From IMG/VR virus record IMGVR_UViG_3300025138_000016: DNA of 64,000 nt, one strand, 5' to 3'. Below, piece after piece: positions 1,345 to 26,654 of this stretch (position 1 is the first letter of the stretch; each line of letters opens with the position of its first letter). The translations under genes were made by a program, and so were the position numbers. The DNA comes from a virus. The notes below the pieces were generated by a model. The model searched no databases, was not told the origin of the DNA, and saw only the letters and a program-made list of their open reading frames with translations.

Positions 1345-2163
1345 TTAGTTGTCTTCTAATTCATCGATTAAGTCTTCCCATATGTCCTGATGGTTAACTA
1401 TTGTTGATAATGTAAACCTATTTGTACGAGCATGCGCAGCATGCCAGGAAGAATCTTCTGGATTATCCGACCATTTTACTATCGGATTATCCATACCTAT
1501 TTTCTCTCTATGTATTTTTTCTGGTGCTGTTGATATAAATTGTCCTGCTCTACAGCTCCAACCCTTTGCGTCAGGGTATTCTAAAATCTCACCATTATCA
1601 TAAGTAAAGAAGTCCCCTTCACCTATTTTGTTATAATGTAATAATATGTTATAACCTGGTGCATTTCCGTTATGATGCCAAGGTATAAATGTGCCAGGTG
1701 TATAAAAAGCACAAAGCGCCATTGCTCCACCACCTAGAAAGTCAGCTGATATATCATATACAGCTTGTTTAAGTTTTGTACCTAAGAAGAACTTAGGATT
1801 GTTATAGAATGTTTGTCCAGCTAAGAATGTTTCCGCATTAGGAAATCCGCTAGTAACATGTGAGCCATTTTCTTTGCGCATTAAATTCATCTGATACTGA
1901 AGGTATTCCATACCACATGGATCCATCTGTCCATCTTTAATATCATCTCTTGTATGACTTGGTAGTATATCAAAGTGAGGAGATACTTTATACGCTTCTT
2001 TACCTTCTTTCCTTCTCTGCTCAGGGTTACGATGATCAAAAGACAACTTATGTTCTCTATCTAAAAACTCTTTATCATCGAATACTTGATCAACAAGTCC
2101 AGATATATTATCTAATAGTTTAAGAAATTCTGGATTCTTAATCTTTACGTCACGCATTTTCAT
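1345..2163 (-). CDS. Putative 2OG-Fe(II) oxygenase/cupin-fold protein
   Basis: YTPGTFIPWHHN ... WHAAH ... RFTLS resembles a Hx(D/N)...H...R facial triad. Confidence 0.5.
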   Translation of the reverse strand: MKMRDVKIKNPEFLKLLDNISGLVDQVFDDKEFLDREHKLSFDHRNPEQRRKEGKEAYKVSPHFDILPSHTRDDIKDGQMDPCGMEYLQYQMNLMRKENGSHVTSGFPNAETFLAGQTFYNNPKFFLGTKLKQAVYDISADFLGGGAMALCAFYTPGTFIPWHHNGNAPGYNILLHYNKIGEGDFFTYDNGEILEYPDAKGWSCRAGQFISTAPEKIHREKIGMDNPIVKWSDNPEDSSWHAAHARTNRFTLSTIVNHQDIWEDLIDELEDN

Positions 2164-2169
2164 TATAAA

Positions 2170-3039
2170 TTATCCTTGCTCATGAGGAGCTCGTGCTTGT
2201 TCCTTTTCTTCTTGGGTTAACGTCTCCCATTCATCTTCAGCATCCTTATAATCTTCTGGTAAAGCTTTATGCATTAATTGACGATCTAATGGATGATGTT
2301 TTATTACTGGTGTACAGCCTGCCTCTTCTTCAGCATTTAGGTACATATTCCAATTCCATTTAGCCTGACCGAACTCAACAGCTGATACTTTTATACCTGG
2401 TGCGTCGAATTTCATTATATACCATAATGTAAATTGGTCCCAGCTTTTATTACCTATCCAATATTCAGGATGCTCGTCCCACCATTTTACTGAACAGTTT
2501 ATTTCTTTATATCGAGGCCACCAATTGTTAATAACATTATTAGCTGCTTCAGTATCATTCCATAAAAAGAATCCACCATGCCATATAAAGTTTCTTTCAG
2601 GGTCATCATCTCGTATACCAGCATTACCGTCTTCGGCATATATGGCTGTTGATGCTCCAACTCTTGTTGTTATCTTACAGAAAGCCATATCATGCTCATC
2701 ATCAAGTAGCTTCCATACATCCTGTATTTCAGGATCAACAATTTCCATATCAGCATCAAGATAGCATGTCTTTTTAAATGGTGAGAATGGTAGACCCCAT
2801 AGCTTTGTTCTTGTACTATGTGGCATACCTTGATCTTCAGTAATAATATCTACTACTTGATCGTACTCTCTAAACTCATCTGCCCATGTATTATGTGTTA
2901 CAATTAATACTTTACAGTCAGGATAGTACTCATCTAATGAGTCTAATAGAATAAGTGCGTTATTTTTATACCAGGGATGTAGCGTCGCTACTATAACAAA
3001 ACCTTTATCGTATGTCTTATTGACTGACATCGTAATCAC
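2170..3039 (-). CDS. GT-A fold glycosyltransferase
   Basis: SPFKKTCYLDAD (DxD), HGGFFLW and WDQFTLW motifs. Confidence 0.7.
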   Translation of the reverse strand: MITMSVNKTYDKGFVIVATLHPWYKNNALILLDSLDEYYPDCKVLIVTHNTWADEFREYDQVVDIITEDQGMPHSTRTKLWGLPFSPFKKTCYLDADMEIVDPEIQDVWKLLDDEHDMAFCKITTRVGASTAIYAEDGNAGIRDDDPERNFIWHGGFFLWNDTEAANNVINNWWPRYKEINCSVKWWDEHPEYWIGNKSWDQFTLWYIMKFDAPGIKVSAVEFGQAKWNWNMYLNAEEEAGCTPVIKHHPLDRQLMHKALPEDYKDAEDEWETLTQEEKEQARAPHEQG

Positions 3040-3433
3040 TCACAACTGCTGATGCATATACGTTTAATGCTTCAAACGTTTCTGCTTTACGAAGTCTTCG
3101 TTTTAGTTTTTTATTAGTAGAGGCTTTTATTTCTGGAAGTTCGTAAAGAGTTAATTTTGCTTGGAACAGTTGTTCTGCAAAAGCTCTCTTTTCGTTTTCC
3201 TGTTGTTCTTGCTCTTGAGTGTCGCGTTGGGTTCTGTACTCATCTATATCAGCTTGAGTTCTTGCATCGATCTCATCTAGAGTAGTTTCGCGTAAAGCAG
3301 CATCCCAATTTTCGGTATCTGCTCTGTCGATTATCATCTCACGACTTCCGGTGTCAGTTATTTCCCGACACCTTAGTCTTGTCTTTGTTTCTGGATCTTC
3401 CCACAAGATTTTTTTAAATCTTTTATCTGCCAT
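3017..3433 (-). CDS. Hypothetical protein, possibly a fibre assembly chaperone
   Basis: 138 aa, charged and helical, directly downstream of the repeat fibre genes. Confidence 0.55.
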   Translation of the reverse strand: MADKRFKKILWEDPETKTRLRCREITDTGSREMIIDRADTENWDAALRETTLDEIDARTQADIDEYRTQRDTQEQEQQENEKRAFAEQLFQAKLTLYELPEIKASTNKKLKRRLRKAETFEALNVYASAVVSDYDVSQ

Positions 3434-3468: not shown

Positions 3469-3498
3469 TATTATATATTACATTGTATATTTATGCAA
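3469..3498 (-). promoter_or_regulatory. Sigma70-type promoter with embedded late box
   Basis: Minus strand TTGCAT-N17-TATAAT; CATAAATA overlaps the -35 element. Confidence 0.5.
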
Positions 3499-6400
3499 CT
3501 CTCAGCCATAGTTTAACTGTGCTTTCTACACTAGTACTAGCCATAATAGTATCACCTGAGAACTGTCCTGTAAACTGATTACTAAATGTACTTGTATACT
3601 GAGGACCTGGAGTCGATCTAGAATAGGTTCCATCTGAATAACTTGGTCCACCAGTAGCTCTAGCATAGCCTATTGCAAAGTTTGGTCCAACTACTAGTCT
3701 AGCATACTGACCATCTGTGTAACCTGGTCCAGGAGTAGTTCTAGCGTAGCCTACTGCATAGTTAGGTCCTGGTCTACTTCTAGTATATTGACCGTCTGAG
3801 TAGCTAGGTCCTGGTGTAGTTCTAGCATAGTTAGTTGTATACTGTGGTCCTGGTGTTACTCTAGTATAGTTACCATCTGAGTAGCTAGGTCCAGGAGTAG
3901 TTCTAGCAAAGTTAACTACGTAGTTAGGTCCTACAATTAATCTTGTATATTGACCATCTGAGTAGTTAGGTCCAGGTGTTGATCTAGCATAACCTACTGC
4001 ATAGTTAGGACCTGGTCTGCTTCTTGTATACTGACCATCAGAGAATGTTACACCTGGTGTTGATCTTGTGTACTGTGCAGTAAATTGTCTTAAGAACGAT
4101 CTACCATAACCAGCAGAGTAAACTCTTACGAAGCCTCTAGCATATGCTCCTGTAAATTGTCTGTTGAATGCTCTTGAATAACCAGCTGAGAATTGTCTAG
4201 CAAATGCTCTTGAATACTGACCATAATAGGCTCTAGCAAACGCTCTACCATATCCTGCTGAATATACTCTAGTAAACTGTCTAGCATATTGACCAGCGTA
4301 TTGCCTAGCAAATGCTCTTCCATATCCTGCTGAGTAGACTCTAGTAAATTGTCTAGCATATGCACCGTTATAAACTCTTCCGAATGATCTTCCATATCCT
4401 GCTGAGTAGACTCTAGTAAATTGTCTAGCATATGCTGCTGAATATACTCTTCCGAACGATCTAGTATAACTAGCTGAATAAACTCTAGTAAATTGTCTAG
4501 CATATGCACCGTTATAAACTCTTCCGAATGATCTATTATAATTAGCTGAGTAAACTCTACCAAACGATCTTCCATAAGCGCCAGCATATACTCTGCCATA
4601 GTTAACAGCATAAGCTGGCCCAGGCCTGCTTCTACCATAGTTTACAGCATAAGCTGGTCCAGGTCTTGATCTAGCATAGTTAACAGTATAGTTAGGTCCT
4701 GGTCTACTTCTTGCGTAGTTGCCGGTATATACTCTACCATAGTTAACTGTATACTGTGCTGAATAAACTCTACCATAGTTTACTGTATAAGATCCGTAAT
4801 AGATTCTTCCAAAGGATCTTCCATAAGATACACCATAATTTGGTCCAGGTCTTGATCTACCGTAGTTACCAGCATATAGTCTACCGTAGTTAACTGCATA
4901 TGAACCTGAATAAGTTCTACCATAGTTACCGTAATAAACTCTACCATAGTTAACAGCATAGTTTGGTCCATTATATTGAATGCCAGGTAAAGGTCCCCTA
5001 GCATATTGAGGTCCAAAGAAGTTAGAGCCATCACCACCATTAATAGGTGAAGGTGATTGCCATGGATAGTTTCTTGAGAAAACTCCACCATAGTTAGTAC
5101 TTGGAAAAGAGTTATTAAACTGTCTTGTATAACTTACACCATAAGCTGGTCCAGGTCTTGCTCTGTTATAAGCCGGCCCGCCTCTTGATCTACCATATGA
5201 TACGCCGTAGTTTGGTCCGCCTCTTGATCTAGCATAGCTACCGTAATAAACTCTACCGTAGTTAACAACATAGTTTGAAGTATAATTTGGTCCAGGTCTT
5301 GATCTACCGTATGCTACACCATAAGCTGGTCCAGGTCTTGACCTACCATAACTTACACCATAAGCTGGTCCTGGTCTACTTCTTCCGTAGTTACCTGCAT
5401 ATACTCTTCCGAAAGCTCTTCCGTATGCTGCTGAATATACTCTACCGTAGTTAGTTGCATATGCACCATAGTATACTCTACCATAGTTAACAGCATAAGC
5501 TGGCCCAGGTCTGCTTCTTGCGTAGTTACCGTCTGAATAACCTGGTCCTGGTCTTGATCTAGCATAAGCTACATCATAGTTAGGACCTGGTCTACTTCTA
5601 GTATAGTTACCATCTGAGTAGTTAGGTCCAGGTGTTGATCTAGAATAGCCTACTGCATAGTTAGGTCCTGGTCTTGATCTGGCATAGTTACCATCACTAT
5701 AGTTAGGTCCTGGTCTGCTTCTTGCGTAGTTAACAGTATAGCTTGGTCCTGGTCTACTTCTAGTATAGTTACCATCTGAGTAGTTAGGTCCAGGTGTTGA
5801 TCTAGCATAGTTAACAGTATAGTTAGGTCCCGGTCTGCTTCTTGTATATTGGCCATCTGAGTAGTTAGGTCCAGGTGTTGATCTAGCATAGTTAACAGTA
5901 TAACTTGGACCTGGTCTAGTTCTTGAATACTGACCGTCTGAATAATTTGGTCCTGGTGTCGCTCTTGCATAACCTACTGTATAGTTAGGTCCTACAATTA
6001 GTCTAGAATAGTTACCATCTGAGTAATTAGGTCCAGGTGTTGATCTAGCGTAGTTAACAGTATAGTTAGGACCAGTAGTAGTTCTTGCATATTGACCATT
6101 AAATACTCTCTGGAATTGTCTTGCATATTGACCAGCATATTGTCTAGCAAACGCTCTAGTATATTGCGCTGAGAATACTCTAGTAAACTGTCTAGCATAT
6201 TGACCGTTAAATTGTCTCTGGAATGATCTTCCGTATCCTGCTGAGAATGATCTAGCGAACTGTCTAGCATATTCACCAGAAAATGATCTAGCAAATGATC
6301 TTCCATACCCTGCTGTAAATGATCTAGCAAACTGCCTAGCATATTGACCAGCAAATTGTCTAGCAAATGCTCTTGAATAGTCTGCTGTAAATGATCTATT

Positions 6401-7324
6401 AAATGCTCTGGCGTATTGACCAGTAAACTGTCTAGTAAATGATCTTGTATAGTCAGCTGTAAATGCTCTAGCAAATTGTCTAGAATACTGTGCTGAATAT
6501 ACTCTGGTAAACTGTCTTGAGAAGTTACCAGTAAATTGTTGTGAGTACTGCTGAGATTGAACATCAGATAAACTATTTTCTATAGCATTTGATACCTGTA
6601 ACCATGTTCCTGTTCCTGGGGCAGCAGTTTGTAGCTTATAAGTACCTACTCCAGTAGCTACTATTCTATTTCTTAATCTTTGTGTGAGAGTTTTAATCTC
6701 AGTATTATTCATCTCATTAACTGATGGTGTTGATGCATGTGCAGTTGCTTTCAAAGGTCTATATTCAGTTGGTGAAGTACCTGATGCAATCTTTCTCCAT
6801 AGTTTATATGTAGTTGCTGCTGATTCACCAGTAGCTACTGTATCAGTAAAGGTGCCTTTATCCTGCCATGTACCACCAGATGGAGGAGATACTCCTAAAA
6901 AGTATTGCCCTGTTGCGTAACTAGATGTATTTGCTATCTTTGCAATTAGGTGAGACATTACTGATGCATTTAAATCAGTGTCGTCTTGCTCTTCTATACC
7001 TTTGGATGCATCCCACTGAAGAGGTCTTACAAGACCGCTCTCTGAATGTGAAGCAATATTTTGATAAAGTGTAGTAGTAACAGAGTTAGTAGCTCCAGTA
7101 GCTGGATGTGTTCCTACTGTTTCTGTTCTTCTCGTATCAACAAAAGTACCCACTGATGTACCTGTTGAAAAGCTTATATCACCTGTGCCTGTGCCTGTAG
7201 CGAAATCAGCCAGTATGATATCTGCCATGTAATCCATTTCGGCACTAGACATGCTCTGTAAGCCAGAGAAATTGGTTGTATTCGGTGTACCCGAACTAGT
7301 TTTAATTCTTAAAGGATTTGCCAA
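3491..7324 (-). CDS. 1277-aa Arg/Tyr/Gly repeat protein, putative virion fibre with mirror-ordered modules
   Basis: TTG start with GGGAGA RBS and late box at 7382; about 260-aa base domain then xRx(F/Y)xxxY and xRSxPGPxY repeats; lies in the tail gene cluster. Confidence 0.85.
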   Translation of the reverse strand: MANPLRIKTSSGTPNTTNFSGLQSMSSAEMDYMADIILADFATGTGTGDISFSTGTSVGTFVDTRRTETVGTHPATGATNSVTTTLYQNIASHSESGLVRPLQWDASKGIEEQDDTDLNASVMSHLIAKIANTSSYATGQYFLGVSPPSGGTWQDKGTFTDTVATGESAATTYKLWRKIASGTSPTEYRPLKATAHASTPSVNEMNNTEIKTLTQRLRNRIVATGVGTYKLQTAAPGTGTWLQVSNAIENSLSDVQSQQYSQQFTGNFSRQFTRVYSAQYSRQFARAFTADYTRSFTRQFTGQYARAFNRSFTADYSRAFARQFAGQYARQFARSFTAGYGRSFARSFSGEYARQFARSFSAGYGRSFQRQFNGQYARQFTRVFSAQYTRAFARQYAGQYARQFQRVFNGQYARTTTGPNYTVNYARSTPGPNYSDGNYSRLIVGPNYTVGYARATPGPNYSDGQYSRTRPGPSYTVNYARSTPGPNYSDGQYTRSRPGPNYTVNYARSTPGPNYSDGNYTRSRPGPSYTVNYARSRPGPNYSDGNYARSRPGPNYAVGYSRSTPGPNYSDGNYTRSRPGPNYDVAYARSRPGPGYSDGNYARSRPGPAYAVNYGRVYYGAYATNYGRVYSAAYGRAFGRVYAGNYGRSRPGPAYGVSYGRSRPGPAYGVAYGRSRPGPNYTSNYVVNYGRVYYGSYARSRGGPNYGVSYGRSRGGPAYNRARPGPAYGVSYTRQFNNSFPSTNYGGVFSRNYPWQSPSPINGGDGSNFFGPQYARGPLPGIQYNGPNYAVNYGRVYYGNYGRTYSGSYAVNYGRLYAGNYGRSRPGPNYGVSYGRSFGRIYYGSYTVNYGRVYSAQYTVNYGRVYTGNYARSRPGPNYTVNYARSRPGPAYAVNYGRSRPGPAYAVNYGRVYAGAYGRSFGRVYSANYNRSFGRVYNGAYARQFTRVYSASYTRSFGRVYSAAYARQFTRVYSAGYGRSFGRVYNGAYARQFTRVYSAGYGRAFARQYAGQYARQFTRVYSAGYGRAFARAYYGQYSRAFARQFSAGYSRAFNRQFTGAYARGFVRVYSAGYGRSFLRQFTAQYTRSTPGVTFSDGQYTRSRPGPNYAVGYARSTPGPNYSDGQYTRLIVGPNYVVNFARTTPGPSYSDGNYTRVTPGPQYTTNYARTTPGPSYSDGQYTRSRPGPNYAVGYARTTPGPGYTDGQYARLVVGPNFAIGYARATGGPSYSDGTYSRSTPGPQYTSTFSNQFTGQFSGDTIMASTSVESTVKLWLRVA
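3560..6550 (-). repeat. Coding tandem repeats of 8-aa (A), 9-aa (B) and 4/5-aa linker modules
   Basis: Many near-identical copies such as TAGTTAGGTCCAGGTGTTGATCTAGCATAG and ACTCTAGTAAATTGTCTAGCATA; boundaries approximate. Confidence 0.9.
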
Positions 7325-7384: not shown

Positions 7385-9820
7385 TTATGCAATTCTTAAC
7401 CACAAGGTCTTAGTATTTTCAGTATAATTTGAAGAAACTGTGAGGCCTGAATACTGTTTATTACGAGAACCAGCAAATTGATTGCTATAAGATGAAGCAA
7501 ACTGTGAGCCAGGTGTTGATCTTGTATATTGTCCAGTAAATTGTCCACGAATAAAGTTACCTGTATACTGAGGACCAGGTCTTGATCTAGCAAAGTTTAC
7601 AGTATACTGTACTGACCTTGCATACGTAACACTATAAGCACCAACAAATTGTCTAGCAAATTGACGCTGATAATCCCCTGAGAAAGATCTAGCATAATCA
7701 GCTGTATATACTCTTGTGTATTGAGTGAGGTATGTTGGTCCATTATAGTTAGGACCTACTGTGCTTCTAGTATATTGAGCTCTTGCATATAGACCAGCAT
7801 ACTGAGGTCCAGCAAATTGTCTACCATAAGCACCATAACTTCTAGAGCCTGCGAATGTTCTAGTATAAAATATTCGCGAATATGCCGGAGCATTTCTTGT
7901 TCTTGCATACTGTGCTGTATAGTTTCTTAAATAACTAACTGAATATGCAGGACCATCATATTGTGGACCAGCTACATCTCGAGTAAAGGTACTTATATAC
8001 TGAGGTCCTGCTCTTGATCTTGCATATTGAGGACCATCATATTGTGGTCCTGGAGTTGATCTAGCATAAGCAGGACCATTAAAAGATAGAGAAGGCACAG
8101 ATCTTGTATACTGTGGACCACCTGTAGCTCTAGAAAAGCTTCTAGAGAAGAATCTTGTATATTGTCCTCTTACAAAGTTTACTGGAATAGGCCCACGGTT
8201 ATATGAGCCTCTAAAATATGCTCTTCCATCACCACCATTTGCTTCGCTTTCTGGAACGTTATAATAGTAAACTGTTCTATAAAAGACTTGAGAAAAATCG
8301 AATCCTGGAGCTGTACCTGAATAAAGACCTGTGAACTGATTACCTGTTGAGTAATTTTGATCATATTGCCCTATGTAAGTTCTACCATACTGGCCAGCAT
8401 AAAATCTTTGATAAGCCGCTCTTGTATAGTTTGCTGAGTATACTCTTGTATATTGTCTTTGATATTGCGCTGAATAATTTCTAGCATATTGAACTGAATA
8501 GTTATTAGTATATCGTCTAAGAAATGTCCTAGTATAATTAACAGTATAGTTTGGTCCGTCTGTTGATCTTGCATACTGACCGTAATAAACTAAAAGATAT
8601 GCGACAGCATATGTAATGCCTCTTGAATATGCGCCTGTGAAAGATACTGCATAGTTATCTCCCCTTGCATACTGTCTTTGAAATTGCGAGGAATATGTAC
8701 GAGCATATTGACCTGCATATTGTCTAGTAAATGCTCTTTGAAATTGAGCACTAGCATATTGAGGTCCAGGAGTAGATCTTGCGTATGAGAGGCCTGCAAC
8801 TACTCTTGTATATTGTGGACCATCATAGTTAGTACCAGCTACTCCTCTAGCAAAGTTAGATATATAACCTCTTGCAAAGCTACGTCCATAGCTACCAGCA
8901 TATACTCTTTGGAATTGATCTGCATATTGTCTAGCAAATTGTCCTCTAGAATATTGATCACTAAATATTCTTTGGAATTGTCTAGCAAAGGTATTAGCAT
9001 ATTGTGCTGTATAGTTACCAGTATATTGAGTATTTTCAATATTAGGATTTCTGTCTGTAGCAGCTCCTCTTGCAACCCATGTACCTACACCAGGAATAGA
9101 AGTTTGAAATTTATATGTGCCGACGCCTGTTGCTACTATTCTATTTCTTAATCTAGCTACTAATGTCTGTATTTCTGTATCAGACATTTCTTGTAAGTTG
9201 GTAGTAGATTGTTTAAGTAGTTTAACTTGAGTAGGACTACTAGTATGAGATGTTTTTCTCCATAGCTTATAAGTAACTTTTTGATCTTCATCATTTGCGT
9301 TGTTAGTAACTTCATCAAAGAATTGATCTTGAGCTACCCAAGTACCACCAATGCTAGGTGCATTAACACTAACGTAATAAGATCCTGCAGCTGCATATGT
9401 TGAATTAGCTTTAGCTATATCATCTAAGCAAAGTTGCATTATAGTAGTGTTTAATTGAGTAGATGTTTGTTGTGCAACATGACCAGGATTAGATGTACCA
9501 CCATGTGTAGCAGGTGTAATCATACTAGCTTCTGATAAAGAAGAAACGTTTTGTTTAAATATATAAGTAGTAGCACCAGCTGATCCTGAATAAGGATGCG
9601 ATAAGAGTTCACCAGTTGCAAAATTATCTACAAATGTACCAACACTAGTACCTGTTGAATTGATATTTAAATCTCCAACATGATCACCAGAGCCTGACTC
9701 TGTAGCGTACTTAGTGTTTATTAATTTAACGGAATAGTCAAGCTCAGCATTTGTTGTGACTTGGACTCCATTATTATAAACCCCATTTGCATGTGTTCGC
9801 AACTTAAGGGGATTGCTCAT
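7385..9820 (-). CDS. 811-aa paralog of the repeat fibre protein
   Basis: Shares RLRNRIVATGVGTYK, YKLWRK, central NGGDG and C-terminal LWLRxA with 3491-7324. Confidence 0.85.
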   Translation of the reverse strand: MSNPLKLRTHANGVYNNGVQVTTNAELDYSVKLINTKYATESGSGDHVGDLNINSTGTSVGTFVDNFATGELLSHPYSGSAGATTYIFKQNVSSLSEASMITPATHGGTSNPGHVAQQTSTQLNTTIMQLCLDDIAKANSTYAAAGSYYVSVNAPSIGGTWVAQDQFFDEVTNNANDEDQKVTYKLWRKTSHTSSPTQVKLLKQSTTNLQEMSDTEIQTLVARLRNRIVATGVGTYKFQTSIPGVGTWVARGAATDRNPNIENTQYTGNYTAQYANTFARQFQRIFSDQYSRGQFARQYADQFQRVYAGSYGRSFARGYISNFARGVAGTNYDGPQYTRVVAGLSYARSTPGPQYASAQFQRAFTRQYAGQYARTYSSQFQRQYARGDNYAVSFTGAYSRGITYAVAYLLVYYGQYARSTDGPNYTVNYTRTFLRRYTNNYSVQYARNYSAQYQRQYTRVYSANYTRAAYQRFYAGQYGRTYIGQYDQNYSTGNQFTGLYSGTAPGFDFSQVFYRTVYYYNVPESEANGGDGRAYFRGSYNRGPIPVNFVRGQYTRFFSRSFSRATGGPQYTRSVPSLSFNGPAYARSTPGPQYDGPQYARSRAGPQYISTFTRDVAGPQYDGPAYSVSYLRNYTAQYARTRNAPAYSRIFYTRTFAGSRSYGAYGRQFAGPQYAGLYARAQYTRSTVGPNYNGPTYLTQYTRVYTADYARSFSGDYQRQFARQFVGAYSVTYARSVQYTVNFARSRPGPQYTGNFIRGQFTGQYTRSTPGSQFASSYSNQFAGSRNKQYSGLTVSSNYTENTKTLWLRIA

Positions 9821-9830
9821 ATTTTATCCC

Positions 9831-12776
9831 CTAGGCCGGCCAGGCCACATCACCATTAGCGTAATATACTCTGAATGCGTTTCCGCCTTCATCTTTAATA
9901 TCACTATGTATTGATAAGTCTCCTACTACGTTAGCTGCTGCTTGTAAGTTTGTTGCGCTTGTTACTTTTAATGTACCTGTTTCTGTTTCACCAGTAACAC
10001 TTACGTTAGCACCAGCAGTAATATTATTATCTACTTGTGCTGTAGAAGATACATTTATAAAGCCAGTAATAGTTGTATTACCAGTACCTAAAGTTTTACC
10101 TACAGATACGTGCTGTGTAGTAGATATATTACCACTAAAAGTACCTGTGTTAGCAGTTAATTTAAATCTCTTAGTTGTATCACCAAGTACCGCACCTGAT
10201 GTATTAGATGCAGGTTTAACACCTGAAGACGTTGATATAATGCCAGTAGTATTAATTGTATTAGCATTCAATACCCATCTATTATTTACATCACCTAATG
10301 AAACTGTATTGCCATTAGGAATAAATCCTACTGTTGAGTTACCAACAGGTGCAAGTACAAATAAATGCTCTGTACCTGAGTTATCACCAATAGTAGTATT
10401 ACCATCTAATGTTGTCTCTGCTGATACAGATAGTGTAGTCATTGTGGCTACATTTAATGATAGCGCGTTATCACTTGCAAGTGATGTTGTACCTTGTACT
10501 GTGAAATTACCAGCAACAGTAACATTATTACTGAATGCTGTATTTGGTGCAACGTCCATACCAGTATCAGTGATGTATAATTCACCGCTTACTAGATTAG
10601 CTGTTGCGCCTGTATGAATTATAGGTGAGGTTAAAGTACCATGCGCTAATGAGCCTGTTATAGACGTATCGCCGCCAACATTTAATTTCTGACCTATTTG
10701 TACTGACTTAGCTATACCAACACCACCTGAAGTAGTTATTGATCCAGTTGTAGTACTAGTACTATTAGCAGTGTTATCTACATCTATTTTACCATCAACA
10801 CCTAAGTGACTTGATACGTTAGCTGTTCCAGTAATCTCTACATCGCCAGTAATTGTAGCACCAGATGCTGAGACTGTTAAACCGTCTGCTACTGTTAATG
10901 AATCACCTAATACGACGTTACCTGATACATTAGCAAGACCAGTTATATCTGCTCCACCATTAAGATCAGATAATCCTGAAACCTCTAGTCCGCTTGATAG
11001 AGTAGCTTTACCTGTAACACCAAGAGTACTACCAACAGTAGCTGATGTTCCTATACCAGCTCCGCCGACTGTAGTTAAACTAGCGGCTGCGATAGCACCG
11101 TCTGCAGCTATAGCCCCTGAATCAGATATTACAGCATTTACTGTACTATTACCAATAGTTATTTTTGAATGTGTTATTGCGACATTACCAGCTGTAATAT
11201 TATCTTGAGCTGTTATTGCGCCTTGTACGTTTAATGTACTATTTAAATCTGTTGCACCATTAGCCTGTAAAGTACCTGTTACATTTGCACTTGCTGCTTT
11301 TACATTACCAGCAAATACTGCAGCATTAGCTGTAGTTGTTCCGTCTATTGAAACTGTATTACTTAATGTAGTTGATCCAAGCACTGATAGAGTACCATCA
11401 GTATCAACGGCTGTTTTTGTTATGGCTGTATTAACAGTTGAATTACCAACTGTTATTTTTGAAGTTGAGAGGTTAACATTAGCGCCAACATTCATTTGCG
11501 TTGTTGCGTTTGCTATACCTGTTGTTATTAGACCTGATTTAGCTCTTAATAATCCACCAACGTTAGCTGCACCTGATAATAAAGTAGTTGTACCTACTGA
11601 TAGATTATCAGTTATAGTAACTGTATCACCAGCTGTTACATTACCTGTTAGTGTTGTTAAACCTGATGCATTTATATCAGCTGCTTTTAATCCCCATCTA
11701 GCATCATTTAATCCTAATGTCTGTGTATTAGCTTCTGGATTAATATTTGAAGATACTTCAGCTATAAAGTTAACTGAATCTGAGTTAGCATTACCTAAAT
11801 CAACATCTGCATTAAGAGTTGTTTTGCCTGCAATAGTAAGAGTACTACTACCACCTATTGCTCCTGTCACATCGGCTTTACCGCCTATTGACGTATTCCC
11901 TGTAACTGCTAGAGTATTTGATACACTCACAGTATTACTATTAAGGTTCCATCTAGCGTCTGTTAGACCAAGGGACAATGCGTTAGAAACGGGGTTTAAG
12001 CTTGAATCAGACTCTGAATTAAACGTTACTGTATCACTATTAGCTGAACCAAGTACTACGTTTGCATTAAACTGTGACTCATCTGAATCAACAGTTACTA
12101 AGTTACCAGCCAATGTTACAGAGGTTGATGTACCATCTCCATTTATATCAATAGCAGATAAAGTTGAATTAGACTTAAGCGTTATATCGTTAGCAGTAAG
12201 AGTAGTATTATCATAATCAGCTGTTAATGTTGTACCATCCATATCAACTGTTGTAGAGTTAATATCTAATGTTGTACCAGTAACATGAACTGCTGTTGAA
12301 TTTATTGAAGTATTAGTTGATGATGAATTAATATGTACATTAGAACTAACTTGTAGCAAAGTACCATTAGCAAATACGTTTGCTGTTTCTAGATCAACGA
12401 ATGATCCTTTAATGGTAACAGAATTAACAGTAGCATTAGAGCTAACATTAACAGTACCGTTTGATAGATTACTGTTTGATGTAACGTAGAGAGTGTTTGA
12501 TACTTGTACATTACCACCTCTTACATCATTAAATACAGCAATTGTATTAGATTGTAATATACCGCCTGTGCTATTAACCCAAGCTTCAGTATCTTGATTG
12601 TAAACGTTTGATGTTATTACAACGTTACCAGATGTAGAACCACCAACAGTATTTTGCTGAGCAGTAACAACTGTCTCAGATAAATCAAATAGTATCTGAT
12701 TGGTTTTGTCTACCCAAGCACCAAAGGTGTCTGTTTGCGTTGCAATATTAGCGGATTTATATTTTCTTTCAGCCAT
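9831..12776 (-). CDS. Long tail fibre-like protein
   Basis: TDTFGAWVDKTNQI N-terminus; long Ser/Thr/Asn/Gly/Val beta-rich repeats; repeated LGxxDARW motifs. Confidence 0.75.
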   Translation of the reverse strand: MAERKYKSANIATQTDTFGAWVDKTNQILFDLSETVVTAQQNTVGGSTSGNVVITSNVYNQDTEAWVNSTGGILQSNTIAVFNDVRGGNVQVSNTLYVTSNSNLSNGTVNVSSNATVNSVTIKGSFVDLETANVFANGTLLQVSSNVHINSSSTNTSINSTAVHVTGTTLDINSTTVDMDGTTLTADYDNTTLTANDITLKSNSTLSAIDINGDGTSTSVTLAGNLVTVDSDESQFNANVVLGSANSDTVTFNSESDSSLNPVSNALSLGLTDARWNLNSNTVSVSNTLAVTGNTSIGGKADVTGAIGGSSTLTIAGKTTLNADVDLGNANSDSVNFIAEVSSNINPEANTQTLGLNDARWGLKAADINASGLTTLTGNVTAGDTVTITDNLSVGTTTLLSGAANVGGLLRAKSGLITTGIANATTQMNVGANVNLSTSKITVGNSTVNTAITKTAVDTDGTLSVLGSTTLSNTVSIDGTTTANAAVFAGNVKAASANVTGTLQANGATDLNSTLNVQGAITAQDNITAGNVAITHSKITIGNSTVNAVISDSGAIAADGAIAAASLTTVGGAGIGTSATVGSTLGVTGKATLSSGLEVSGLSDLNGGADITGLANVSGNVVLGDSLTVADGLTVSASGATITGDVEITGTANVSSHLGVDGKIDVDNTANSTSTTTGSITTSGGVGIAKSVQIGQKLNVGGDTSITGSLAHGTLTSPIIHTGATANLVSGELYITDTGMDVAPNTAFSNNVTVAGNFTVQGTTSLASDNALSLNVATMTTLSVSAETTLDGNTTIGDNSGTEHLFVLAPVGNSTVGFIPNGNTVSLGDVNNRWVLNANTINTTGIISTSSGVKPASNTSGAVLGDTTKRFKLTANTGTFSGNISTTQHVSVGKTLGTGNTTITGFINVSSTAQVDNNITAGANVSVTGETETGTLKVTSATNLQAAANVVGDLSIHSDIKDEGGNAFRVYYANGDVAWPA

Positions 12777-13024
12777 TACCTTGTCCTAGAAGCTAGCTGA
12801 ACAAGCACATCTTGTATATCGTGTAACGTTTTCGTCTGTGCTTTTACTTGCGATTTCATCTCTGCGATTTCATTCTCAAGTATATCAACTTTTTGCATTT
12901 TTATTTGTTGTTTTCTTTTTCGTGCCTTGTGTGCATCTAATGCAGTCTTATTAGTATTTATGATAGCCCCTGAGGTCGTCTCTTTAAATAAGAATGGAAC
13001 ATTAGTTTTAATTATATCTGCCAT
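12776..13024 (-). CDS. Small coiled-coil hypothetical protein
   Basis: SGAIINTN motif plus heptad-like C-terminus; position typical downstream of DUF4815 genes in T4-like phages. Confidence 0.65.
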   Translation of the reverse strand: MADIIKTNVPFLFKETTSGAIINTNKTALDAHKARKRKQQIKMQKVDILENEIAEMKSQVKAQTKTLHDIQDVLVQLASRTR

Positions 13025-24839: not shown

Positions 24840-26654
24840 CTATGCTCTCTCAGGAATAGCGGTTATTGATATATCACTAGCATTTAGTTGAAGTATAGCA
24901 CCTTTAGTAGATTTAATATTTCTGCTAACTGTTCTTGCTTTTACCTCTAAATTTGTACCTGTAAATGCTGGTATTAATAGAGATGATATTTCTATCTTAC
25001 CAGTCTTATAATCGACAGTACCAGCTTTAGCTAGAATAATAACTAATTTGTCTGAGCTATCTGTCTTAACAATCTTAAGATTACCAAGTCCATCATCTAC
25101 TAGAAATGCACTTGTGTCAGTAGCAAATGTAAATGTTGTTGATTCAATAGCTGATTTATATGTTGTCTTAACTGATGTGCTATGTAATATGTCATCAACA
25201 GCAAGCTCATTATTAAAGTCAATAACATATGACTTTTTAATTGTAGCAGGAGGTGAGAGCTTTCTCTTCACTCTAACTTCAAACTCAGTTGATGATATTG
25301 AAGTATCACAAGCATCTACTGCTCCTAATGCTTTTGAGTTTCTATATGTTACACCAAATCCATTTATGTTTGTATTAGCAAAAGATATTAAAGCATTAGT
25401 TGCTTTTGTTGCTATTGCACTAGTTGATTGGGTTGTTGTAGTTATATTATAGTATGATTTACCATTAATTTCAACGTATAAGAATTCTGGTATATTAACA
25501 ACAACATCAATACCTACTGGTGTTTTATCTTTAAAGAAGTCGGTTATTGAGCTTTTTAATGACTCTGGTACGCCGTCTGCATCAGCTAAATCAACCGCTA
25601 GAATAACTTTACCATAACGAGGTGGAGTTAATTGCTCGCCACCAAATGCCAGCACATTTTTAACTTGAGGGTATTCTCTTTGCAATAGTATTTTATAATC
25701 GTTGGCTGTAACAGCTCTTTCTTGCACCTGGAAGGCACGCGGTGCATTGAATTTGATATCGTTCATCGATTCAATTTCTTGTCCACCGATACTATTTGTG
25801 ACAGTTGATACAGCAACGTTGCTATGACCGTCTATTGATCCACTATTAACAAAAACTTTACCATTATCACCGAGCTTACCTGTGCCCGATCTATATGAAA
25901 TCTCTACTAAATTACCTTGAACTGGTTTTTTACCAAACACTCCATCACCGAATGTGATGTTAAACTTACTTCCTTGTGTTGGTTCTATAAAATATGAATT
26001 GGATGTAGATGATAATCCAAATAGAGTATCAGCTCTTGTCCATACAGAGTTAGAAGTAGAACTACTTGATTCTCTTATTTTAACAACTAGATGTCTTGTA
26101 TCTACTTCTTTATTAGATATAGTTGCTATAAATGAGTTAGCTGAGGTAACAGCAAATACTTCTTCAACAACTTTACCTTCAAATATATCAACATTAGATG
26201 CAACGTACTGTGTATTATTTAATCCATCAACAGAAGGTTTAATAACTAAAGCGTTTTCAGTTGTGAATGTTTTAGATACACCAGCAATAGACGTAGTGAA
26301 AGGAGTATACTTTGGTACAGTAATAAGACTCTGTCTTTCAGTTGGATAAACTTGTAGATTAATAACCGCTTTTGATGAATGAAATGATCTAGGTGTATAA
26401 TTAAGTTCTTTAATATGCGATATAATACTATCTCTTTCTTGAGCTGTATCTAAGAACATTTCATTAGCTACCATATTAAGGTAGAAATTATTTAAATATG
26501 TGTTATAAGCTAATACATCTAAAACAGTACTAATATTAGAACCTGTATAGTCATAATCCTTAATATTGCTCTGTGATTGAAGAAACGTAACTAAATTAGT
26601 TTTAATTCCTTCGAAGTCTAGCTCTGCGATTTGTGTTGCTGAATTTGCGGCCAT
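24840..26654 (-). CDS. gp6: Baseplate wedge subunit
   Basis: ELDFEGIK, LLDVLAYNT-like motif, FGDGVFGKK, QERAVTANDY. Confidence 0.9.
   Translation of the reverse strand: MAANSATQIAELDFEGIKTNLVTFLQSQSNIKDYDYTGSNISTVLDVLAYNTYLNNFYLNMVANEMFLDTAQERDSIISHIKELNYTPRSFHSSKAVINLQVYPTERQSLITVPKYTPFTTSIAGVSKTFTTENALVIKPSVDGLNNTQYVASNVDIFEGKVVEEVFAVTSANSFIATISNKEVDTRHLVVKIRESSSSTSNSVWTRADTLFGLSSTSNSYFIEPTQGSKFNITFGDGVFGKKPVQGNLVEISYRSGTGKLGDNGKVFVNSGSIDGHSNVAVSTVTNSIGGQEIESMNDIKFNAPRAFQVQERAVTANDYKILLQREYPQVKNVLAFGGEQLTPPRYGKVILAVDLADADGVPESLKSSITDFFKDKTPVGIDVVVNIPEFLYVEINGKSYYNITTTTQSTSAIATKATNALISFANTNINGFGVTYRNSKALGAVDACDTSISSTEFEVRVKRKLSPPATIKKSYVIDFNNELAVDDILHSTSVKTTYKSAIESTTFTFATDTSAFLVDDGLGNLKIVKTDSSDKLVIILAKAGTVDYKTGKIEISSLLIPAFTGTNLEVKARTVSRNIKSTKGAILQLNASDISITAIPERA

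Follow-up and report, generated by a model that had tools for sequence, protein, structure and literature searches.

To our knowledge, nearly all phage fibres known so far are one-way trimers. Long and thin single-layer beta-sheet rods with cross-strand side-chain contacts and no conventional hydrophobic core are found in the G5-E repeats of the staphylococcal proteins SasG/Aap and in OspA. The gp37 needle at the tip of the T4 long tail fibre was reportedly described by Bartual et al. 2010 as using roughly 50 residues per pass, with iron ions held by HxH motifs. This needle is a three-chain, six-stranded shaft that runs out and back (PMC9659904). In this study, we describe P1 (P0001), the 811-aa product of an open reading frame (ORF) at 7385..9820 on the minus strand of a 64,000-nucleotide stretch of viral DNA (IMG/VR virus record IMGVR_UViG_3300025138_000016; hereafter the window). 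Judged from its translation, P1 is the shorter of two paralogs and a candidate fold-back fibre protein, in which the order of sequence modules in the C-terminal (C) arm is the mirror complement of that in the N-terminal (N) arm.

Mirror-complementary module order in the arms of P1

The long paralog P2 (P0002; 1277 aa; 3491..7324) lies directly downstream of P1 on the same strand, and the N-terminal domains of the two proteins (∼265 residues) are 43% identical. Both follow a common plan, with an N-terminal domain, a long repeat region in which every fourth residue is aromatic, a central NGGDG motif, a second repeat region and a C-terminal end, which reads TLWLRIA in P1 and KLWLRVA in P2. In P1, these parts are the base domain (residues 1-265; 9026..9820, on the minus strand like all the P1 features given here), modelled as three repeats of a helix, a short strand and a beta-hairpin; the N arm (residues 266-527; 8240..9025); the symmetry centre NGGDG (residues 528-532; 8225..8239); the C arm (residues 533-799; 7424..8224) and the C-terminal strand TENTKTLWLRIA (residues 800-811; 7388..7423), predicted to be the last strand of the third base repeat. 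Around the centre lies a non-modular tip region (residues 487-562; 8135..8362), whose sole strict core is the partnerless B541 (NRGPIPVNF). Each arm also contains an irregular stretch, at residues 381-416 on the N side (8573..8680) and, opposite to it, at residues 648-683 on the C side (7772..7879), as delimited from the pair tables of P1, P0008, P0010 and P0018.

The arms were parsed with a dynamic-programming (Viterbi) tokeniser that uses three token types: the 8-residue module A (xRx[FY]x[^R]x[YF]); the 9-residue module B (xR, then no aromatic but a G/P, with [YF] as residue 9); and linkers, which are 4-5 residues long with Y/F as the last one. Modules A and B share their ends ([AT]R...[QN]Y), while in B the inner aromatic is replaced by Pro-Gly-Pro and one residue is added. 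Read from the outside inwards, the N arm is A A A A B B B A A (irregular) B A A A A A and, read from the inside outwards, the C arm is B B B B B A B (irregular) B A A A B B. For the hairpin alignment of the two arms, A and B were merged into one symbol, and the types were read only afterwards. Since the alignment sees nothing but a skeleton of cores, linkers and other residues, it cannot favour complementarity.

All 12 core pairs obtained for P1 in this label-blind way were A:B. By their start residues, the outer pairs are 283:766, 304:744, 324:722, 338:710, 347:702 and 365:684, and the inner ones are 417:631, 434:613, 446:600, 458:586, 471:572 and 479:563. With the alignment kept fixed, shuffled labels reached 12/12 with p 0.0006 over all cores and p 0.002 within arms. 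When the register was slid, the complementary pairs fell to 7/11 at +/-1 module and to 6/10 at +/-2. From the tip outwards the two skeletons match, with A A l A l A l A l l B in the N arm and B B l B l B l B l l A in the C arm (l, linker). In addition, five of the six DG/NG 5-mers of P1 are found opposite xRx(x)[FY] linkers. Direct-repeat and mirror-identity models of the P1 arms scored no better than shuffles.

A preliminary description of the locus, made by reading the sequence by eye, had listed A:B pairs from both ends inward, and the label-blind alignment reproduced this list, including the five pairs next to the tip. The matching linker counts, the facing of DGPxY by xRx(F/Y) and the stretch that would not pair cleanly were likewise recovered, in the identical linker pattern of both arms, the 5/6 ratio and the irregular residues given above, respectively. 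One of the listed pairs needs a correction: LLVYYGQY (409) and ARTRNAPAY (639) do lie opposite each other, but LLVY is outside the strict definition of A. A mirror score no better than that of shuffled arms had been named beforehand as the result that would speak against the pairing rule; the p values above show that P1 beats the shuffles.

Two-sided change among the relatives of P1

A word search with the base domain retrieved 54 homologs, down to an expect value (E) of 6.5e-9, and 31 of the 54 proteins, P1 and P2 included, were testable for A/B modules. The P1-type set analysed below consists of 28 proteins, P2 and two fragmentary or chimeric proteins having been left out. Label-blind alignment of this set gave 271 core pairs, of which 260 were complementary, compared with 68% when the arms were slid by one. 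This was maintained over 25 distinct module orders among the 28 P1-type proteins and P2. For instance, P1 and P0008 have the outer stem in common, whereas the inner stem consists of N-arm A and C-arm B five times in P1 and of N-arm B and C-arm A four times in P0008. A single pair is flipped between two other relatives, from A:B in P0010 to B:A in P0018.

Changes in module number are matched as well. In P2, the order 12A 15B 3A 3B 1A 3B stands opposite 12B 15A 3B 3A 1B 3A, with 37/37 pairs complementary. The P2 ortholog of a relative with the same gene order (L002:12414-16913; 1499 aa) reads 15A 20B 3A (B A x5) 3B 20A 15B, so that, compared with the 12/15 of P2, equal numbers of modules were added to both arms. 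The arm lengths, taken from motifs that are independent of the pairing, are 272/274 residues in P1, 241/237 in P0008 and 513/506 in P2. Among 23 distant members in which the [YF][YF]GG turn occurs once, the lengths of the two arms correlate with r = 0.986 over 30-158 residues; the looser motif [YFW][YF][GSA]G was avoided for this purpose because it also matches ordinary modules.

P2 contains 72- and 81-nt tandem arrays at the DNA level (75-84% identity), whereas no DNA tandem repeats were found in P1 beyond two trivial 12-24-nt matches. The mirror complement of P1 is thus no residue of a recent block duplication and, as its modules are individually diverged, the complementarity must have been kept up module by module. 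P1, whose modules are old and diverged and whose DNA has no repeats able to simulate the pattern, is therefore a harder test of the pairing rule than P2. The preliminary description had likened a different module order under the same A:B rule to covariation in an RNA stem, as opposed to chance duplication, and had proposed collecting the family to check the pairing. The 28 P1-type relatives now assembled bear this out, with 260/271 complementary pairs and flips on both sides. Chance duplication is further argued against by the lack of DNA repeats in P1 and by the failure of the direct-repeat and mirror-identity models against shuffles. Mutual information over 250 unique A/B pairs indicated couplings A3-B3, A1-B8, A6-B4 and others. 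These couplings are subject to confounding by shared descent and leave the register undecided.

Outside the modules, the orthologs of P1 conserve A[NQ]GxD followed by RGP[ILV] at the tip. The irregular stretch (381-416 facing 648-683, including GSRSY) is kept in orthologs whose module order is otherwise different, and its invariant residues are G387 and Y390 on the N side and R667 and Y674 on the C side. The stretch could act as a hinge or a binding site or introduce a kink.

A profile of the base built from two sequences extended the family to 397 clusters (E <= 1e-3). Among them, 117 complete members of 273-1335 aa carry LW[LIV]R at the very C-terminus. The minimal complete members, of 273-296 aa, consist of the base, a short loop and the C-terminal strand, with almost no arms. 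At the other extreme, the metagenomic protein P0175 (1335 aa) has several hundred non-repeat residues at the midpoint of the hairpin, as would be expected for a distal tip domain. No Pfam match was found for this insert, and an initial guess that it might be LamG-like was dropped, as Pfam gave no support for it. In a tblastn search of phage records, Phage C48C1 (OQ984149) was the sole family match; those to Synechococcus phage S-RIM2 were confined to repeats (E ∼1e-4). The member of Phage C48C1 (L001:8983-19026), annotated as hypothetical, is a 3347-aa protein with the same base, the C-terminal sequence TLYVRVA and several non-repeat inserts of 100-400 aa. Its module pair is different, xRxRxSxY versus xRxFxGNY, and the outermost three modules per arm are mirror-complementary.

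Base domain and the fold-back reading

The third base repeat offers a link between the two ends of the chain. Three repeat motifs can be read in the sequence, GTSVGTFVD...ATTYIFKQ, GGTWVAQDQ...VTYKLWRK and VGTWVARGA...(arms)...KTLWLRIA. As the last of them is interrupted by the arms, the fibre arms would be the third hairpin in a stretched form. AlphaFold2 (AF2) models were built for P1 from a 28-sequence alignment and for P0111, a homolog of 389 aa, from 56 aligned sequences. The predicted local distance difference test score (pLDDT) of the base is ∼90 in P1 (residues 1-265) and 95-98 in P0111. At the C-terminus of P1, which is docked on the base in the model, the block means rise from 78 (residues 791-800) to 95 (residues 801-810), and the C-terminal end of P0111 scores 80-98, with 96-98 for the C-terminal strand itself. 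Mirrored strand positions in the P1 model (i + j ∼1053-1065) were not counted, because their pLDDT is ∼30.

In structure comparisons, the best matches of the modelled base were 2qp2 (Z 6.9), 8b6v (6.8), 3tow (5.8) and 6sb1 (5.3), which all have one fold, the beta-prism, and the next unrelated match had a Z of 3.2; all the beta-prism matches are below the safe Z of ∼8. The structural alignments extend to the last residue and take in the C-terminal strand. These models suggest that the base is similar to a beta-prism of the type of the MABP domain (PMC2881412). At the sequence level, no Pfam match that would identify the base as MABP-type was obtained at E <= 0.01, and Foldseek searches of PDB with the P1 and P0111 models, and of BFVD, returned no match at E <= 0.001.

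The arms are probably beta strands, as judged from a four-residue aromatic period and a beta-prone composition. The autocorrelation of aromatic residues is 0.49 at lag 4 and -0.22 at lag 3. Tyr and Phe make up 19-23% of the arms and Arg 10-12% (23 and 10%, respectively, in the N arm); the arms are rich in Thr, Ser, Gln, Ala, Gly and Val, contain no His, Cys, Met or Trp and have almost no Lys/Glu, with no Lys at all in the N arm. Their charge is strongly positive: 27 R versus 9 D/E in one arm and 32 R/K versus 5 D in the other, i.e. ∼58 Arg and 1 Lys versus 14 Asp/Glu in both arms together, for a net charge of ∼+45. Distant family members with xGxY repeats do not have the strong positive charge of the P1 arms.

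The mirror complement, its two-sided maintenance in relatives, the equal arms, the return of the C-terminus to the base and the position of the gene in a baseplate and tail-fibre block (see later in the text) are demonstrated. On this ground, we regard P1 as very probably a structural protein, encoded by a marine T4-like phage, that builds a fibre from one very long intramolecular hairpin. Residues 1-∼265 would fold into a compact base, whose third-repeat hairpin is drawn out to ∼270 residues per arm. The chain would leave the base, run to the NGGDG tip, turn, and return antiparallel until its last strand, TLWLRIA, is inserted into the base. Along the shaft, A (xRx[YF]xxxY) would face B (xRxxPGPxY) and linkers would face linkers. 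If A is always opposite B and linker opposite linker, the module order of one arm dictates that of the other, and this pairing rule could fix the register of arms that are hundreds of residues apart during folding. In a beta strand, Arg2, [YF]4 and Tyr8 of module A would lie on one face, and in an antiparallel two-stranded ribbon the Pro/Gly bulge of B, with its extra residue, would pack on the aromatics of A. Each module would be closed by Arg-Tyr contacts, with the DG(P)xY linkers opposite the xRxF linkers. In the course of evolution, sites separated by hundreds of residues would then change in step. Fully extended, at ∼3.3 A per residue, such a fibre would measure ∼85-90 nm for P1 and ∼170 nm for P2.

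How many chains would build the shaft is a separate matter. We put forward tentatively, as a possibility short of an even chance, that it is a partnerless, single-chain, two-stranded beta ribbon (∼90 nm; ∼170 nm for the paralog) that would represent a new fibrous fold class. The two-letter module code would set the register of the ribbon and possibly its local bend, as B is one residue longer than A. A ribbon of two strands ∼90 nm in length would lack precedent, and the gp37 needle, the only out-and-back phage shaft that has been solved, is made of six strands from three chains (PMC9659904). Both points speak for a fold-back homotrimer, in which three hairpins would associate into a six-stranded needle resembling the T4 gp37 tip and the A:B rule would act partly between subunits. 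The base, however, is predicted to be pseudo-threefold by itself, and the extension of just one of its three hairpins is in keeping with a monomer. The net charge of the arms would oppose close bundling unless counter-ions were bound. Without His, the arms would also have no metal sites such as those of gp37. We consider the homotrimer unlikely, if still a serious candidate.

Equal arms and a mirror complement would also be predicted by an antiparallel homodimer, in which each N arm is matched with the C arm of a second chain and each chain completes the base of its neighbour, leaving a base at each end of the fibre; the sequence statistics cannot separate pairing in cis from pairing in trans. 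Nevertheless, the near-armless minimal members must close their base in cis, and in the AF2 monomer the C-terminal strand docks in cis at high confidence. Moreover, the exact midpoint is occupied by a conserved turn (NGGDG in proteins of the P1/P2 type, [YF][YF]GG in distant members), and P0175 and Phage C48C1 have several hundred non-repeat residues there, as for a distal tip domain. Trans pairing is thus improbable in our view. A conventional one-way trimer would dispense with pairing altogether, the arms being successive segments of the shaft and their mirror order a product of duplication history. It would fit nearly all the phage fibres known to us, and P2 does have recent tandem duplications, but P1 has no DNA repeats and yet 12/12 of its pairs are complementary, while the direct-repeat model does no better than shuffles. 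Neither the two-sided flips nor the matched insertions and deletions of the relatives can be explained in this way, and the N-terminal base includes the C-terminal strand. We regard a one-way trimer as highly improbable.

Several observations weigh against the reading of P1 as a one-chain fold-back fibre. Four of the 29 strict cores of P1 have no canonical partner (A296, A316, A373 and B541); A296 and A316 stand opposite degenerate stretches of 9-10 residues, and A373 and B541 are left unpaired in the alignment. An irregular stretch of ∼30 residues interrupts each arm, and 11 of the 271 pairs in the P1-type proteins are of the same type. A gap-tolerant alignment of the bare A/B strings gave a weaker result, with p ∼0.10 when the tip was fixed and 0.04 when it was free; this test is low-powered, and the label-blind skeleton alignment was used in its place. 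Regarding structure, the arms have a pLDDT <50 in P1 (residues 267-789) and of 41-56 in P0111, so the confident model ends at the base and lends no support to the strand-on-strand geometry of the arms. Finally, it is the gene context, by itself, that would place P1 in the virion.

If the fold-back reading is true, it would provide a readable rule for the pairing of a chain with itself over hundreds of residues, in which the order of one arm predicts that of the other. It would also offer a natural model of register control in very long beta structures and possibly a kit for designed fibres of set length. The 397 clusters, whose arms span lengths from near zero to thousands of residues, would then represent probable fibres of marine T4-like phages that are abundant, and form a large family so far lacking annotation. 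Should the single-ribbon form hold in particular, P1 would be the protein counterpart of an RNA stem and belong to a new class of fibrous folds.

Genome context, occurrence and known systems

P1 is located downstream of a gp6-like gene, of further T4-type baseplate wedge genes and of tail-fibre-like genes. The gp6-like protein (24840-26654) is 36% identical to that of Caulobacter phage Cr30 and 34% identical to those of Sinorhizobium phage phiM12 and relatives. A 111-aa ORF at 965-1300 has matches to phrog_1084 (E 2e-23) and, at E 3.5e-13, to phrog_3304, annotated as 'L-shaped tail fiber protein assembly', and the fibre paralogs are thus flanked on both sides by tail-fibre-related genes. The gene order is also kept in one relative. 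From the baseplate wedge and tail-fibre matches, the window is part of a T4-like phage of ∼155-160 kb known only from marine metagenomes. Next to the fibre genes on their downstream side, at 1345-3433, are three ORFs (138, 289 and 272 aa) that are conserved in the relative sharing this gene order; Pfam and PHROG searches gave no match for them at the thresholds applied. An 82-aa ORF at 12776-13024, flanked by two large fibre-like genes, shows similarity to phrog_473, annotated as 'virion structural protein' (E 1e-9), and has weak coiled-coil-type Pfam matches.

The P1 gene is found nearly unchanged in seawater metagenomes of several studies, and one independent marine metagenome contig covers it from end to end, with 3 substitutions and 0 indels. 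Contigs from the marine metatranscriptomes of two studies cover parts of P1 at 95-100% identity; as DNA carry-over is possible, transcription is not claimed. In family libraries, P1 matched no Pfam family and no PHROG, and P2 has only a marginal match, in its repeats, to an unnamed PHROG. No PDB sequence match for P1 was found at E <= 1, the ESM Atlas gave only unnamed viral clusters with scores <= 0.87, and we found no description in the literature of a fibre of this design.

Two other shaft designs were considered and rejected. One-way trimeric shafts (triple beta-spiral, triple beta-helix or coiled coil) do not agree with a C-terminal strand in the base and with arms that are not direct repeats. 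For a collagen-like fibre, Gly would be needed at every third residue, whereas the arm period is 4 and comes from aromatics.

Among known systems, the base of P1 may resemble the MABP domain and the C-terminal beta-prisms of MACPF proteins in its predicted three-sheet, pseudo-threefold fold (Z 5-7, below the safe level) and differs from the MABP-type beta-prisms in having one helix per repeat and no sequence family match. We know of no beta-prism with one hairpin extended by hundreds of residues. With SasG/Aap and OspA, the predicted P1 shaft would share a long, thin beta build that relies on cross-strand side-chain contacts in place of a conventional hydrophobic core. SasG/Aap and OspA are chains of small domains whose three-stranded sheets are closed locally, whereas the arms of P1 would pair over their full length across distant sequence. 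By analogy, P1 resembles an RNA stem-loop in its reverse-complement two-letter order, its central loop and its compensatory changes on both sides. Unlike the bases of an RNA stem, however, its letters are modules of 8 or 9 residues, and their complementarity probably stems from the pairing of strands in which a Pro/Gly bulge packs on aromatics.

The closest parallel is with the gp37 needle. In both proteins, a thin beta shaft (in P1, a predicted one) runs out to a distal tip and returns antiparallel, so that the strands must match, and both are phage fibres encoded in a T4-like tail module, P1 by its gene context. P1 differs from the needle in using ∼270 residues per pass, in having 0 His in either arm and in its two-letter module alphabet. 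Moreover, its returning chain completes the base, and it has no sequence or profile similarity to gp37. P1 therefore has the out-and-back shaft topology of the gp37 needle and stands outside the gp37 family.

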